Assembly (NCBI GenBank): GCA_964357975.1
Contig: CAYHNG010000007.1
Coordinates: 1 to 61,281, forward strand
Reading direction: 5' to 3'
DNA: 61,281 bases
From: an uncultured Pseudomonadales bacterium
Lineage (GTDB): Bacteria; Patescibacteriota; Microgenomatia; UBA1400; MFAQ01
Shown here: positions 35,188 through 38,245 of the stretch, piece after piece
Numbering within the stretch: position 1 is the first letter of the stretch
Layout: each line of letters starts with the position of its first letter
Position numbers and translations under genes: made by a program
Notes under the pieces: generated by a model
The model's input: the letters and a program-made list of their open reading frames with translations, nothing else
What the model was told of the DNA's origin: nothing
Databases searched by the model: none

Positions 35188-35198
35188 AGCTGGTAATT

Positions 35199-35272
35199 GG
35201 GTCGATAGCTCAGCTGGTTAGAGCGCGAAGCTTATACCTTCGATGTCGTAGGTCCGAATCCTACTCGACCCA
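35199..35272 (+). tRNA. tRNA-Ile, anticodon UAU
   Basis: Hand-folded cloverleaf:
- Acceptor GGGTCGA/TCGACCC.
- D arm GCTC-AGCTGGTTA-GAGC.
- Anticodon arm CGAAG-CTTATAC-CTTCG, giving anticodon TAT.
- T arm GTAGG-TCCGAAT-CCTAC.
- Discriminator A, with no encoded CCA. Confidence 0.85.
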
Positions 35273-35275
35273 CCC

Positions 35276-35644
35276 ATGAAAGGAAAGACAAAAACCACGA
35301 AGGTTAAAGTTAAACAAGACAGGCTTTTGAGGGTATCTCAAACGAAGAACGAGCTTGATGATTATGTGGGCAACAACTGGCCACAGGAAATGCTGATAAG
35401 CGGAAACCTAGAACTGGGAAAGAGCGGAAATCCGGTGACTGTTTATTTGGAAGATGAGGTCACGGGCGAGCAACTGGAAGTGTCCGGGGTAAAAAATGCC
35501 TTTTTGATACTGGAAGATACCAGAAGAACCTCCTCCGGTTGGTTGGCATTGGCTGTGGGCTCTATAGAGAAAATGGGTGATGTCTTAGGGTTTTTATCCC
35601 AAACAACTTTAGATACCATCAAAAAACTGACAAAGAAACATTAG
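35276..35644 (+). CDS. hypothetical protein
   Basis: 122 aa with a Lys-rich N-terminus. The ATG begins 4 nt after the tRNA end. The 3' end overlaps the convergent recombinase gene by 4 nt. Confidence 0.4.
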   Translation: MKGKTKTTKVKVKQDRLLRVSQTKNELDDYVGNNWPQEMLISGNLELGKSGNPVTVYLEDEVTGEQLEVSGVKNAFLILEDTRRTSSGWLALAVGSIEKMGDVLGFLSQTTLDTIKKLTKKH

Positions 35645-36516
35645 AGATCGACGATCTTTGGTTTGTCTTTGGCCGGTTTCTCAGAGATAAATTCGAGATA
35701 TTTTTCGGTGGTAGAAAGTCTTTTGTGACCAACAAGCTTGCTAATGTAGACCAAAGGACTACCGGAAGTCAGCTGTTGAGCAATAAAGGTGTGTCTAAGA
35801 TCGTTGACCTTGGCGTTTTCGATGCCGGCGATGTGAAAATAGCGATCAAGATTGGAACGAATATTTCTGATAAGGAAAGCGTTGCCCGTCTTAGTAATAA
35901 AGACGCTATTGTTAGCACTTTTGGGTCGAACGGCCAAATATTTGTCTAGAGCCTCTCTGGCAGGTTGGTTGATGGGGGTAACTCTTTCAGGGTGTGATTC
36001 GTAAGCTCTGATAGTGACTTGATTGGTATTTTTGTCGATATCGGTAATTTTAAGGTTGGCCAATTCAGAGATACGCATACCTGTTTGAAGGAGAATCTCC
36101 ACGATAGCCGCCATTCTGACATCTTCGCGGCAGGCGTCTCGAAGGGCACGGTATTCGATCTTGTTCAGGATTCTGGGCGGTTTGATATCATATTTGGGGT
36201 GAGAAACACCAATTGAAGGATTTTCGGAAATAAGTCCGTTTGTTTGAACATAGGAGAAGAAAGACTTGATAGAGTTAATCTTTCTGGAAATTGATTTGGT
36301 GGTGTAGCTATTTTCCGCCAAATGAGCCTTAAAGGAGTCAATGCTCTCTTTGGTAACCTCCTTGAGGTTGGTAATATTGGACTTGGCTACAAAATCAGCC
36401 AGTTGCTCGATATCTTTCGAATAGGCTAAGATGGTAGCGGAAGCTCTGCCTTGCTGTGCAAGGTGGTTCTTAAAGGCTGAGACGGCCTGTTTGATATTGA
36501 GTTCGTTTTGGTCCAT
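35641..36516 (-). CDS. tyrosine recombinase/integrase (XerC/XerD-like)
   Basis: N-terminal SAM-like domain. The catalytic set is GMRISELANL (Arg), LRHTFIAQ (His-x-x-Arg region), and VGHKRLSTTEKYL (His...Tyr). Confidence 0.8.
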   Translation of the reverse strand: MDQNELNIKQAVSAFKNHLAQQGRASATILAYSKDIEQLADFVAKSNITNLKEVTKESIDSFKAHLAENSYTTKSISRKINSIKSFFSYVQTNGLISENPSIGVSHPKYDIKPPRILNKIEYRALRDACREDVRMAAIVEILLQTGMRISELANLKITDIDKNTNQVTIRAYESHPERVTPINQPAREALDKYLAVRPKSANNSVFITKTGNAFLIRNIRSNLDRYFHIAGIENAKVNDLRHTFIAQQLTSGSPLVYISKLVGHKRLSTTEKYLEFISEKPAKDKPKIVDL

Positions 36517-36573: not shown

Positions 36574-36942
36574 GTGGGTAAAACAAACACGGTAAATAGG
36601 CATGAAAGAGGGTGGTATGGAGCCCTGTTCCTGGTGGTGGCTTGGTTACTGATCCTTTCGCTTTCGAGGGATGTTTGGCAAATAAGGCTGGGCTTTAACA
36701 GAATTTTGGAGGCAACCAGGAGATTGGAAGTAGAACAGGCAAAAAATGACGCTTTAAAGGCTAAGCTGAACTTGGTCATGACGGATGACTTTAGAGAAAA
36801 GATTATCAGGGAGAAGCTGAATATGCAAAAAGAGGGAGAGATTTTGGCTGTGATGCCCGAAAAAGCTTTGATCCGGGAGGTTGCAGAAAGAACAAGTCCG
36901 GTACCTAATTGGAGAAAGTGGTGGAATCTGGTATCCCCGTAG
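36574..36942 (+). CDS. FtsB/DivIC-type septum formation initiator
   Basis: Single TM followed by a coiled coil and IREKLNMQKEGEIL, typical of the DivIC/FtsB family. GTG start. Confidence 0.6.
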   Translation: MGKTNTVNRHERGWYGALFLVVAWLLILSLSRDVWQIRLGFNRILEATRRLEVEQAKNDALKAKLNLVMTDDFREKIIREKLNMQKEGEILAVMPEKALIREVAERTSPVPNWRKWWNLVSP

Positions 36943-36970
36943 GAATGTCAGGTCCGAGAGGTTTTCGGTA

Positions 36971-37046
36971 TGGTTGCGGGTCTAGGGTTCCGCCCCCCAG
37001 TTAAGCAGGATTATGAGCCCTGCAAGATACTTACCTTCCACCCGCA
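36971..37046 (-). tRNA. divergent initiator-like tRNA (CAU) with aberrant D and T loops
   Basis: 76 nt on the minus strand, folded by hand:
- Acceptor TGCGGGT/ACCCGCA (7 bp), then A and CCA. The 3' end GCAACCA matches that of E. coli tRNA-fMet.
- Anticodon arm CAGGG-CTCATAA-TCCTG, with a GGG run before the loop.
- An A11:U24-type pair is present.
- The D loop is TAAGTA (no GG) and the T loop is GGCGGAA (no TTC).
- An extended -10 lies 16 nt upstream. Confidence 0.5.
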
Positions 37047-37062
37047 AAAGACGAACATCCAT

Positions 37063-37071
37063 ATTATAGCA
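37063..37071 (-). promoter_or_regulatory. extended -10 (TGcTATAAT) for the minus-strand tRNA-like gene
   Basis: The reverse complement of 37063-37071 reads TGCTATAAT, and 16 nt separate it from the tRNA-like 5' end at 37046. Confidence 0.55.
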
Positions 37072-37109
37072 TGAGTGAGCGTAATTTGGCTGCTATGGTG
37101 CCTTCAAAA

Positions 37110-37118
37110 TGGTAAAAT
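37110..37118 (+). promoter_or_regulatory. extended -10 (TGgTAAAAT) for tRNA(CAU)/trpS
   Basis: TGGTAAAAT lies 31 nt upstream of the tRNA 5' end. Confidence 0.5.
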
Positions 37119-37149
37119 AGGGCTTGGATCGCCTTTTGGAGCCGATCAT

Positions 37150-37221
37150 GGCAGGGTAGCTCAGTGGTAGAGCAAGGTCTTCATAAGGCCGAGGTCACGG
37201 GTCCGACCCCCGTCCCTGCTA
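37150..37221 (+). tRNA. tRNA with CAU anticodon (elongator Met, or Ile2 if lysidinylated)
   Basis: Hand-folded cloverleaf:
- Acceptor GGCAGGG/CCCTGCT, with a G1-U72 wobble.
- D arm GCTC-AGTGGTA-GAGC.
- Anticodon loop TTCATAA.
- T arm ACGGG-TCCGACC-CCCGT.
- No encoded CCA.
It is not initiator-like, having no 1:72 mismatch and no GGG/CCC anticodon stem. Confidence 0.8.
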
Positions 37222-37246
37222 CTTTAGAGAGAGAAACGACAAATAT

Positions 37247-38245
37247 ATGAAAAAAAGAATACTGACAGGAGACAGGCCAAGTGGAAAATTACATTTAGGT
37301 CACTACGTTGGTTCTCTGGCAAACAGAGTTAAGCTTCAGGAAGAATACGACCAGTATGTTTTGATAGCCGATGTACAAGCTCTAACCGACAATTATGAAC
37401 ATCCGGAAAGGGTGGCTAATTCTGTACGTGAATTGGTTTTGGATTATGTGGCTGCAGGTATTGATCCGACAAAATCTACAATTGTCTTACAATCTCAGAT
37501 CCCGGCGATTGCCGAGCTGACTGTATTTTATCTAAATCTGGTGAGCCTAAACCGGGTGCTACGAAACCCAACAGTAAAAGCCGAGATCGAACAAAAAGGC
37601 TTCGGAGACTCAATTCCCGCCGGATTTGCAATGTATCCTGTATCTCAAGCGGCTGATATAACGGCCTTTGAGGCCAATTTGGTCCCCGTGGGTGAGGATC
37701 AGCTGCCCATGATAGAGCAGACCAGAGAGATTGTCAGAAAATTTAACGGTCTGTACGGGGAAACTCTCATCGAACCGGAAGGCTTAATAAGCGAATTTCC
37801 AAGACTGGTGGGTTTGGACGGAAAGGCAAAGATGAGTAAAAGTCTGAGTAATGGAATTTATCTATCTGATGGTACAGAAGAAGTTAGAAAAAAGGTAATG
37901 AGCATGTACACTGATCCAAACAGATTAAAGCCATCGGATCATGGTACGGTAGAGGGCAACCCGGTCTTTATTTATCATGACGCGTTTAATCCTAACGTGG
38001 AAGAGGTGAATGATTTGAAAAAAAGATACCGTTCAGGGATGGTCGGGGATGTAGAGGTTAAGCAAAAACTTGTTGTAGCGATAAACAATTTATTGGAACC
38101 AATGAGGAGCAGGCGAGCCGAATTGGAAAATCACCCGGAAAGAATTGAGGCCATCTTAAGGGATGGGGTGGAAAATGGTCGAAAAGTTTCCCAAGAAGTT
38201 CTGATAAAAGTGAAAGCGGCAATGAAGATAAATTACGATTTTTAA
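37247..38245 (+). CDS. trpS: tryptophan--tRNA ligase
   Basis: HIGH-type GKLHLGHY, a KMSKS motif, and a size of 332 aa. Confidence 0.95.

Follow-up and report, generated by a model that had tools for sequence, protein, structure and literature searches.

The source organism is an ultra-small groundwater bacterium, and the window (the whole stretch of DNA analysed, 61,281 nucleotides) carries on its minus strand, at 37046..36971, 76 nt that we read directly as UGCGGGUGGAAGGUAAGUAUCUUGCAGGGCUCAUAAUCCUGCUUAACUGGGGGGCGGAACCCUAGACCCGCAACCA. These 76 nt hold a candidate initiator tRNA gene with anticodon CAU and an encoded CCA. An extended -10 element precedes the gene, and a canonical elongator tRNA-Met is its divergent neighbour; a tRNA-Ile(UAU) and one further tRNA also lie nearby. 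The features of the locus are as follows:

37063..37071, minus strand: extended -10 element TGCTATAAT, read directly, 16 nt upstream of the tRNA 5' end
37047..37062, minus strand: spacer and 5' leader, from the -10 element to the mature 5' end, containing a GTTCG motif
36974..37046, minus strand: candidate initiator tRNA gene, positions 1-73, anticodon CAU, supported by the minimum-energy cloverleaf, covariation and custom model R1
37040..37046, minus strand: 5' strand of the acceptor stem, UGCGGGU, pairing with ACCCGCA at 36975-36981 (U1-A72, G2-C71, C3-G70)
37038..37039, minus strand: G8 G9 connector, with G in place of U8, the same in 23/23 homologues
37024..37037, minus strand: D arm, 5-bp stem AAGGU/AUCUU and 4-nt loop AAGU (A18 G19 in standard numbering), with an A11:U24-type pair
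37005..37023, minus strand: anticodon arm, 6-bp stem GCAGGG/UCCUGC including pair 26:44 and the wobble G31.U39, loop CUCAUAA
37015-37013, minus strand: anticodon CAU, within the CUCAUAA loop
37001..37004, minus strand: variable region UUAA, 4 nt, from the homologue alignment
36982..37000, minus strand: T arm, 6-bp stem CUGGGG/CCCUAG, loop GGCGGAA (G54 G55 C56 G57 G58 A59 A60)
36971..36973, minus strand: encoded CCA, present in the source genome and not conserved
37150..37222, plus strand: canonical elongator tRNA-Met(CAU), the divergent neighbour, found by ARAGORN and scoring 58.2 bits with RF00005
35641-36516: tyrosine recombinase gene, about 0.5 kb from the candidate

The first-pass annotation of this DNA had described the minus strand from 37046 to 36971 as a 76-nt cloverleaf. 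This cloverleaf is the unconstrained minimum-energy fold of the candidate (-30.4 kcal/mol), and the annotated 7-bp acceptor stem, D stem AAGG/UCUU, CUCAUAA anticodon arm and 6-bp T stem CUGGGG/CCCUAG are all present in it. Shuffled candidates folded at -23.9 +/- 2.8 kcal/mol (z -2.3), with an equally good fold in 4 of 200 shuffles. Covariation was scored in 23 distinct homologues over 24 pairs, giving 552 pair cells, 99.8% of which are paired, against 33-59% in slid controls of the alignment. Both sides change in 11 of the 24 pairs, a count equalled by 0 of 500 shuffles, and the acceptor, D, anticodon and T stems all show covariation. The RNAalifold consensus of the homologues likewise has the four arms of a cloverleaf, its acceptor stem being 7 bp long and its anticodon loop 7 nt. 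The annotation had proposed to look for the homologous locus in related genomes, where lack of conservation would speak against the tRNA; what we found there is a strongly conserved fold with compensatory changes. These results support that the candidate is a real structured RNA under purifying selection.

The homologues also corrected the architecture in several places. Pair 7:66 of the acceptor stem is G-C in 12, U-A in 9 and C-G in 2 of the 23, and A73, G2:C71 and C3:G70 are invariant columns. In the D stem, both partners vary at 10:25 and at 11:24 (11:24 is A-U in 22 homologues and G-C in one), and the invariant closing pair U-A gives a 5-bp stem and a 4-nt loop N-A-G-U; the annotated absence of GG from the D loop stands, its length of 6 nt does not. 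Pair 26:44 is G-C, and U-A in one relative. Because it is paired, the anticodon stem has 6 bp, no nucleotide 26 is left unpaired, and the variable region has 4 nt and not the 5 nt first proposed. Double-sided changes affect 4 of the 6 pairs in the anticodon stem and 4 of the 6 in the T stem. The loop CUCAUAA, with the U33 and the purine 37 of the initiator class, is invariant in 23/23 distinct homologues. C56 and G57 of the T loop are invariant among the homologues, and the T-loop variants of relatives include AGCGUAA, GGCGUAA, AUCGAAA and UUCAAUU. With a T stem of 6 bp, the acceptor and T helix reaches 13 bp in place of the usual 12.

In the core of the candidate, G8, A18, G54, G55 and G58 replace U8, G18, T54, Psi55 and A58, and G19 and C56 are kept. 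The T loop GGCGGAA and the U1-A72 pair, both listed as deviations at the first pass, are real; G8 was absent from that list. The T loops of the 47 other tRNAs of the genome read GTTC in 40 cases and GTCC in 7. Few nucleotides in biology are better conserved than U8, G18, T54, Psi55 and A58, and the known exceptions are tRNAs of organelles and those with specialised functions, tRNA-Pyl and tRNA-Sec among them. Since several of these near-universal nucleotides are replaced, standard tRNA finders miss the candidate. ARAGORN with default settings missed it in the window, in its own genome and in the closed genome of a relative from the same genus (G002), and in relaxed mode (-ps80) returned 602 calls on G002, mostly spurious, and still missed the locus. 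The Rfam model RF00005, whose gathering threshold is 29 bits, gave no match at the locus at gathering or at E<=10, whether 701 nt or the whole genome was searched. The annotation had suggested both programs and had counted a covariance-model score below noise against its reading, and this is the score that RF00005 returned. A custom model, R1, scored the candidate at 101.7 bits.

A homologue is present in 36/36 sampled genomes of the family (Candidatus Collierbacteria, Microgenomates, CPR). The pattern was matched in 45 species-level genomes, mostly Candidatus Collierbacteria where a lineage is given, and in 11 of the order's families model R1 scored 79 bits or more. Searches with R1 found a single copy per genome. 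Another species of the genus carries a copy with 100% identity to the candidate, the sequence change of the gene across the families of the order tracks relatedness, and its divergent pairing with the elongator tRNA-Met is kept in relatives, including the closed G002. In 14 of 79 related loci the anticodon loop is interrupted after U33, between CU and CAUAA, by a group I intron, with RF00028 scores of 69.5, 68.8 and 51.8 bits in the intron-bearing relatives L028, L029 and L030. Group I introns in the anticodon loop show that evolution treats the candidate as a tRNA. Cyanobacterial tRNA-fMet genes with a group I intron, from Synechocystis and Gloeobacter, are among those cited in PMC8450103; compared with these, the window's own gene copy is intronless, the insertion point in relatives corresponding to its U33 (37016), and it is hidden by its tRNA body.

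The extended -10 element that had been placed 16 nt upstream is read at 37071-37063, and TGnTAnnnT recurs in 42 of the 44 distinct upstream regions of homologues, where it mostly ends 16-17 nt upstream of the tRNA gene. A generic two-hexamer promoter scan left the element of the candidate unflagged; such a scan misses an extended -10 because there is no -35. GTTC occurs in the last 20 nt of 33 of the 44 upstream regions, and the leader would measure about 10 nt. At the 3' end, A73 and C74 are constant across 57 intronless homologous loci, and ACCA is found in just 13 of these, the rest having ACAC, ACAA, ACTA or ACAT. The discriminator A of the annotation is thus a constant feature, and the CCA that followed it, though encoded here, is not conserved, and on this ground we reject a functional meaning for its being encoded. 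The genome contains RNase P RNA and two PF01743 nucleotidyltransferase genes (CCA-adding enzyme genes).

We then asked which tRNA could initiate translation in these genomes. The genome of the candidate (97% complete) has one other CAT tRNA, the neighbouring elongator. In G002 (1,089,434 bp), ARAGORN reports 47 tRNAs with a single CAT, again the elongator beside the candidate locus, and every RF00005 hit is accounted for. A canonical initiator elsewhere, which the annotation had named as evidence against its reading, is therefore absent from the closed genome. We also considered a canonical initiator split by an intron in G002 and rejected it, the sole strong group I intron there splitting tRNA-Asn. 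A third CAU tRNA is not to be expected, since tRNA-Ile(UAU) decodes AUA. The genes fmt (contig C8, 32621-33412) and def are present, as for E. coli tRNA-fMet, and adjacent. The candidate has 52 matches to E. coli tRNA-fMet versus 46 to the E. coli elongator, and the neighbouring tRNA-Met is nearer the E. coli elongator than the initiator. This neighbour has a weak G1.U72 pair, G2:C71, C3:G70 and A73; the last three, being common to both tRNAs, do not discriminate the initiator.

Known initiator hallmarks are partly relaxed in the candidate. In tRNA-fMet, the C1xA72 mismatch is a determinant of formylation, EF-Tu exclusion and Pth resistance, and the anticodon stem has consecutive G:C pairs at 29:41, 30:40 and 31:39 (PMC11231383). 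Pair 1:72 of the candidate is a Watson-Crick U-A in the window and in 22 of the 23 homologues; elsewhere it is A-U (G044, G118, G038) or UxU (G051), so that it is always weak. Weak 1:72 pairs are reported to be acceptable to Fmt. The window has two of the three G:C pairs (G29:C41 and G30:C40, with G31.U39 as the third pair); A29:U41 appears in 8 of the 23 homologues, leaving G30:C40 as the sole invariant among pairs 29-31. Elongator tRNAs have Y11:R24, and the candidate has the A11:U24 of initiators, which is not constant in the class, since the type B relatives described below have U11:A24. The first-pass reading of an unusual initiator tRNA of the lineage is supported by the covariation, by the sole other CAU tRNA being an elongator and by orthology, and the candidate is very probably the single initiator tRNA (tRNA-fMet, anticodon CAU) of this lineage.

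Sister families contain initiators of 70-71 nt, which we call type B, with the same acceptor and anticodon arms as the candidate and often with C1xA72. They are found by ARAGORN, score 41-53 bits with RF00005, and have U8A9, G18G19, a 5-bp T stem and a UUCGAnU T loop. Type B initiators share with the candidate G31.U39, the 26:44 pairing and a short variable region, and likewise do not have the full three G:C pairs. Type B is evidently an ancestor-like form of the candidate. Intermediates between both forms occur in G054, G080 and family f46, whose initiator combines C1xA72, G8G9 and G55 in one tRNA; for the G054 intermediate, the best match in the Rfam clan is the tRNA-Sec model, with a score of 20.2 bits that falls short of the threshold.

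Positions 18 and 55 change together. Among 60 distinct sequences, with the T-loop register set by hand for 6-bp T stems, A18 with G55 occurs in 42, G18 with U55 in 16 and G18 with C55 in 2, with no other combination, and two further genomes from other classes obey the same rule. This distribution indicates that the G18:U55 tertiary contact is replaced by a covarying A18:G55. With G19 and C56 invariant and A18:G55 in place, the elbow is probably still formed, and A18:G55, G54/G58 and G8 could together give a stable L-shape. Loss of TruB was considered as the cause of G55 and rejected: TruB is absent in family f1, yet G038 has both TruB and a G55 initiator.

Compared with E. coli tRNA-fMet (metZWV/metY type), the candidate shares CAU in CUCAUAA, A73, G2:C71, C3:G70, G4:C69 and A11:U24. 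Its acceptor stem differs from the CGCGGGG/CCCCGCA of E. coli at 1 and 7:66 only, and the anticodon arm of some relatives, UCGGGCUCAUAAUCCGA, is one base off that of E. coli. Unlike tRNA-fMet, the candidate has a paired U1-A72, G31.U39 and hence two of the three G:C pairs, G8 and not U8, a 4-nt D loop with A18 and not G18, a paired 26:44, a 6-bp T stem and a T loop GGCGGAA in place of T-Psi-C-R-A, and it scores below noise with RF00005. Animal mitochondrial tRNAs and tRNA-Pyl, the latter with a 6-bp anticodon stem and without G18G19 and T-Psi-C, are like the candidate in their short D loop, short variable region and compact core. However, tRNA-Pyl differs in anticodon and identity, its acceptor and D stems are separated by a single nucleotide, its T stem measures 5 bp, and it is an elongator delivered by EF-Tu, with no homology to the candidate. 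Its D loop has 5 nt and its variable loop 3 nt (PMC11467909). With tRNA-Sec the candidate has in common a 13-bp acceptor/T stack, a long D stem with a 4-nt loop and a 6-bp anticodon stem. The acceptor/T split of bacterial tRNA-Sec is 8/5, compared with 7/6 in the candidate, which has no long variable arm, reads CAU and not UCA, and implies no SelB system; the resemblance is one of shape only.

Animal mitochondria use one tRNA-Met for initiation and elongation, and the neighbour at 37150-37222 could in principle do the same, in which case the candidate would be a conserved CAU tRNA employed otherwise, for instance as an elongator with a special task or as a regulator or primer resembling a tRNA. 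The weak G1.U72, G2:C71, C3:G70 and A73 of the neighbour would suit this arrangement, as would the paired 1:72 and incomplete G:C set of the candidate and its rejection by general tRNA models. We nevertheless regard it as unlikely: intermediates link the candidate to sister orthologues that have C1xA72 and the same arms, each of the two tRNAs resembles its own E. coli counterpart, no homologue departs from the candidate's anticodon loop, A73, G2:C71 or C3:G70, and its 1:72 pair is weak in every form observed.

The annotation had left room for a decaying or repurposed tRNA gene, a reading that we reject on the covariation, the conservation and the promoter. That the candidate is a decaying pseudogene, or an intergenic sequence that folds like a tRNA by chance, would fit the silence of ARAGORN and RF00005 and a single-sequence z of merely -2.3, but has practically no probability left for a locus conserved in 36/36 sampled family genomes and beyond, with 11 compensatory pairs, 99.8% of cells paired, a conserved promoter and full identity in another species of the genus, and given that the closed genome, were the candidate discounted, would have no initiator. 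The tyrosine recombinase gene about 0.5 kb off and the tRNA-Ile(UAU) and other tRNA nearby are compatible with a tRNA-like part of a mobile element or phage, serving as integration target or carried as cargo. This origin is very improbable, because in relatives the gene likewise stands divergent to the elongator tRNA-Met, each genome has one copy, and the gene is spread over the families of the order with a divergence that tracks relatedness.

For the candidate as the initiator tRNA, the following pathway can be proposed. The gene would be transcribed from its own extended -10 promoter, whose conservation is observed; RNase P would trim the leader of about 10 nt, and a CCA-adding enzyme would complete or repair the CCA end. 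MetRS may charge the tRNA through CAU and A73, and Fmt may formylate it through G2:C71, C3:G70 and the weak U1:A72, after which IF2 would deliver it to the P site of the ribosome. Since initiator tRNAs bypass both EF-Tu and the A site, they may be able to tolerate such rebuilding in these reduced genomes. A more far-reaching proposal, which we put forward tentatively and consider possible though on balance doubtful, is that the 13-bp acceptor/T helix, and not a 1x72 mismatch, bars EF-Tu and marks the initiator, in a tRNA with a compact core resembling that of tRNA-Pyl or tRNA-Sec, G8 for U8 and an elbow built on A18:G55 with G-G, A-U or G-U at 54/58, and that all protein synthesis in Collierbacteria and related Patescibacteria starts in this way. 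If this were true, bacteria would have solved initiator identity structurally in a second way, and RNase P, the CCA-adding enzyme, Fmt, IF2 and the contacts in the ribosomal P and E sites would be expected to have co-adapted.

A literature search returned no description of such a tRNA in CPR, Patescibacteria or Microgenomates. With the candidate, free-standing bacterial genomes would have a cytoplasmic tRNA that is essential and yet dispenses with core nucleotides, with a covarying replacement contact. It would thereby offer a natural experiment on what the tRNA elbow and initiator identity need, in a setting where both hallmarks, the 1:72 mismatch and the run of three G:C pairs, are relaxed. 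Within one class, compact initiators that standard tools detect grade into the candidate form, which provides a testable evolutionary path. Standard pipelines would score these genomes as lacking an initiator, affecting completeness checks and CPR tRNA censuses. The candidate may also be of interest in synthetic biology, for the design of orthogonal initiator tRNAs.

Read from the window, the minus strand from 37046 to 36971 is UGCGGGUGGAAGGUAAGUAUCUUGCAGGGCUCAUAAUCCUGCUUAACUGGGGGGCGGAACCCUAGACCCGCAACCA, and its unconstrained fold is a cloverleaf of -30.4 kcal/mol (shuffles, mean -23.9 +/- 2.8; z = -2.3) in which every stem listed in the first-pass annotation is present. The upstream element proposed there, TGCTATAAT, was likewise found at 37071-37063 of the minus strand, 16 nt 5' of the candidate. 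The locus and its surroundings comprise the following features:

35198-35276: tRNA-Ile(UAU)
35641-36516, minus strand: tyrosine recombinase, XerC/D-like, 291 aa, which together with the next gene flanks the tRNA cluster
36574-36942, plus strand: small FtsB-like coiled-coil membrane protein, converging on the candidate, with about 30 nt from its stop codon to the tRNA 3' end
37046-36974, minus strand: candidate CAU cloverleaf, followed by CCA to 36971
37150-37222, plus strand: canonical elongator tRNA-Met(CAU), divergent to the candidate

ARAGORN called only tRNA-Ile(UAU) and tRNA-Met(CAU) in the window, not the candidate, and Rfam returned the same two tRNAs and nothing at the candidate. A permissive Rfam search (E<=10) over 36700-37400 gave no match at the locus, and RF00005 run at the same threshold across the whole source genome (GCA_964357975.1) missed it as well. 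The possibility, foreseen in the first-pass annotation, of a covariance-model score below noise was thus borne out for RF00005, but this is the model's failure and not the gene's.

Homologous loci with compensatory substitutions were found in relatives. In a blastn comparison with 60 relatives, the element was present in all 36 sampled genomes of the same family, and another species of the genus carries it with 100% identity; with each species represented by one genome, an exact-pattern scan matched 45 genomes, and the homologous loci with a stated lineage belong mostly to Candidatus Collierbacteria (Microgenomates/OP11, Patescibacteria). In a gap-free alignment of 23 distinct 74-nt homologues, 99.8% of the 552 pair cells were standard on the cloverleaf and 11 of the 24 pairs had changed on both sides; these pairing and covariation values were reached by 0/500 shuffles, slid controls were 33-59% paired, and RNAalifold independently gave the same cloverleaf. 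The AAGG/TCTT pairs first proposed for the D stem were retained, but covariation extends this stem to 5 bp with a 4-nt loop in place of the 6-nt loop claimed, and the variable loop, initially put at 5 nt, comes to 4 nt since 26:44 pairs. A genomically encoded CCA is not conserved, being found in 13 of 57 homologous loci.

Anatomy of the candidate as refined by the covariation.
Acceptor stem: 7 bp
Connector: G8G9
D arm: 5-bp stem, 4-nt loop N-A-G-U
Anticodon stem: 6 bp, since 26:44 pairs, G-C to U-A
Anticodon loop: invariant CUCAUAA
Variable region: 4 nt
T arm: loop of 7 nt on a stem of 6 bp
Discriminator: A73

An extended -10 of the form TGnTAnnnT was present in 42 of the 44 distinct upstream regions of the homologues, usually 16-17 nt 5' of the tRNA start, and a GTTC(G) motif lay between the -10 and the tRNA 5' end (window 37047-37062, minus strand) in 33 of them. 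This leader motif could be related to the transcription start, to RNase P or to T-loop pairing.

The source genome spans 1.14 Mb in 31 contigs, of which contig 7 is the window, and is 97% complete; in it ARAGORN identified 47 tRNAs and a CAT anticodon in just one, the elongator at 37150-37222. AUA is read by tRNA-Ile(UAU), so two CAU tRNAs are needed, an elongator and an initiator, and one was detected. We also analysed in full the closed genome of a relative from the same genus, G002 (MFAS01000001.1, 1,089,434 bp, no N), where ARAGORN found 47 tRNAs and tmRNA, the single CAT tRNA being the elongator that adjoins the candidate's homologue, and where all 45 above-threshold RF00005 matches coincide with ARAGORN calls. 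An intron-split canonical initiator hidden in G002 was ruled out, as the one group I intron that scores strongly there (72.8 bits) sits in tRNA-Asn(GUU), which explains the one isoacceptor missing from that genome. No canonical initiator was therefore found elsewhere, either in the source genome (ARAGORN) or in G002 (ARAGORN, RF00005 and RF00028). The source genome encodes fmt (200.8 bits alone and 202.8 with neighbouring segments; cut-off 201.5) with def adjoining it, an RNase P RNA (118.8 bits) and two PF01743 nucleotidyltransferases. An initiator tRNA is indispensable to a bacterium that formylates, and this locus is the sole candidate.

To place it among known initiators, a custom covariance model, R1 (23 sequences), was run on samples of 151 genomes each of the order, the class and the phylum, and its scores within the order fell into groups. 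The rebuilt form of the candidate, type A (R1 >=79 bits, 74-75 nt), occurs in 11 of the order's families; beyond the order, two more families of the class carry it, as does one genome of another class (85 bits). Most other families of the class carry compact initiators of 70-71 nt, type B (R1 30-55 bits; for example CGCGGGGTAGTGTACGGTTGCACGCGAGGCTCATAATCTCGCAGACAAGGTTCGATTCCTTGCCCCGCAAC), which ARAGORN calls tRNA-Met and RF00005 scores at 41-53 bits. Type B shares its acceptor and anticodon arms with type A and retains U8A9, G18G19, a 5-bp T stem and the UUCGAUU loop, and in many cases also C1xA72, the mismatch characteristic of bacterial initiators (PMC11231383). Intermediates combine G8G9 with a canonical T arm (G054), a type A D arm and 6-bp T stem with a UUCAAUU loop (G080; 32.8 bits), or C1xA72 with G8G9 and a UGCGAAU loop (family f46). 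Compared with E. coli, the candidate matches tRNA-fMet at 52 positions and elongator tRNA-Met at 46, and its neighbour matches the elongator at 53 and tRNA-fMet at 48. These counts, type B and the intermediates indicate that the candidate, as judged from sequence, is an initiator tRNA orthologue with rebuilt D and T arms.

In several relatives, blastn matches were broken at the anticodon loop by inserts that proved to be group I introns (RF00028 69.5, 68.8 and 51.8 bits; threshold 50), present in 14 of 79 loci and every time after U33 (CU|CAUAA). A self-splicing intron at a fixed anticodon-loop site is the pattern of genuine tRNA genes. Cases of cyanobacterial tRNA-fMet genes with group I introns are among those cited in PMC8450103, and CPR tRNAs bearing such introns are difficult to detect (PMC8172020). 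Most introns of the candidate's homologues have a terminal G; a subgroup (L030, L086, L097 and L119) ends in ...CTGTATA or ...CTGAATA (CTGWATA) right before CATAA, without the final G that one would expect at the 3' splice site of a group I intron. In G002, tRNA-Asn(GUU) (145841-146193; loci L031-L085) is split after position 35 by its intron (RF00028), because of which ARAGORN reports no Asn tRNA there.

We next consider the elbow, with the register of 6-bp T stems set by hand. Among 60 distinct sequences of all types, 42 had A18 with G55, 16 had G18 with U55, two had G18 with C55 and none had any other combination, so that the G18:Psi55 contact appears to be replaced by A18:G55. The A18/G55 switch was seen on at least three structural backgrounds (the type B of G272, family f46 and type A) and also in G408 and G386, two additional genomes that belong to other classes, and a reversion was found within one genus, where G013 has AGGU with AUCGAAA and its congeners AAGU or GAGU with GGCGGAA or AGCGUGA. 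G19 and C56 are invariant, pointing to an outer elbow pair that is probably retained, while positions 54/58 are G-G, A-U, G-U, A-A or U-A. The Psi55 synthase TruB (TIGR00431) went undetected in three members of the family (the source genome and the closed genomes G002 and G013) and is present in three other genomes of the order; its loss as the cause of G55 was rejected, as G038 has TruB yet a G55 initiator. With G54 G55 C56 G57 G58, a 6-bp T stem and a 4-nt D loop, the window's candidate is among the most derived versions.

The first-pass annotation had offered either an unusual initiator tRNA or a decaying or repurposed tRNA gene. The candidate differs from E. coli initiators in the hallmark 1x72 mismatch and three G:C pairs and also falls outside the general tRNA core definition. 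It is a CAU tRNA gene, conserved, structured and with a promoter of its own, orthologous to initiators and the only candidate for that role; on these comparative data it very probably functions as an initiator tRNA, though as a variant and not a plain member. We found no description of such a tRNA in the literature searched on CPR, Patescibacteria and Microgenomates. RNase P would trim a leader of perhaps 10 nt, the CCA end would be completed, and the tRNA would be methionylated via CAU and A73, formylated with the aid of G2:C71, C3:G70 and a weak 1:72 pair, and used in the P site; Fmt accepts weak 1:72 pairs. Three features recall tRNA-Sec and tRNA-Pyl: a 13-bp acceptor/T stack, a long D stem capped by a tetraloop, and an anticodon stem of 6 bp. 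Speculatively, it may be these, in place of the 1x72 mismatch, that signal the exclusion of EF-Tu. In a reduced genome the initiator, which never uses EF-Tu or the A site, is for that reason the tRNA with the most freedom to drift.

Other tRNAs showed peculiarities of their own. The T loops of the source genome's other tRNAs read GTTC in 40 of 47 and GTCC in 7 of 47, the latter (C55 instead of U55, GTCCGA) including both window tRNAs at 35198-35276 and 37150-37222. The acceptor stem of the elongator begins with a G1.U72 wobble, as does that of L029, from a relative outside the genus. A class II tRNA with the anticodon loop UUACUAA, tRNA-Ser(ACU), stands beside a normal tRNA-Ser(GCU) in the source genome (C2:78606-78691, outside the window) and in G002 (153851-153937); an encoded A34 is unusual in a bacterial Ser tRNA, and both genomes use tRNA-Arg(GCG), not ACG. 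At about 664,100-664,800 of G002, a tRNA-Asp 3' fragment (…GAATCCCGTCAGCCTCGC…) occurs in two copies about 130 nt apart, which resemble duplicated attachment sites left by an integrated element.
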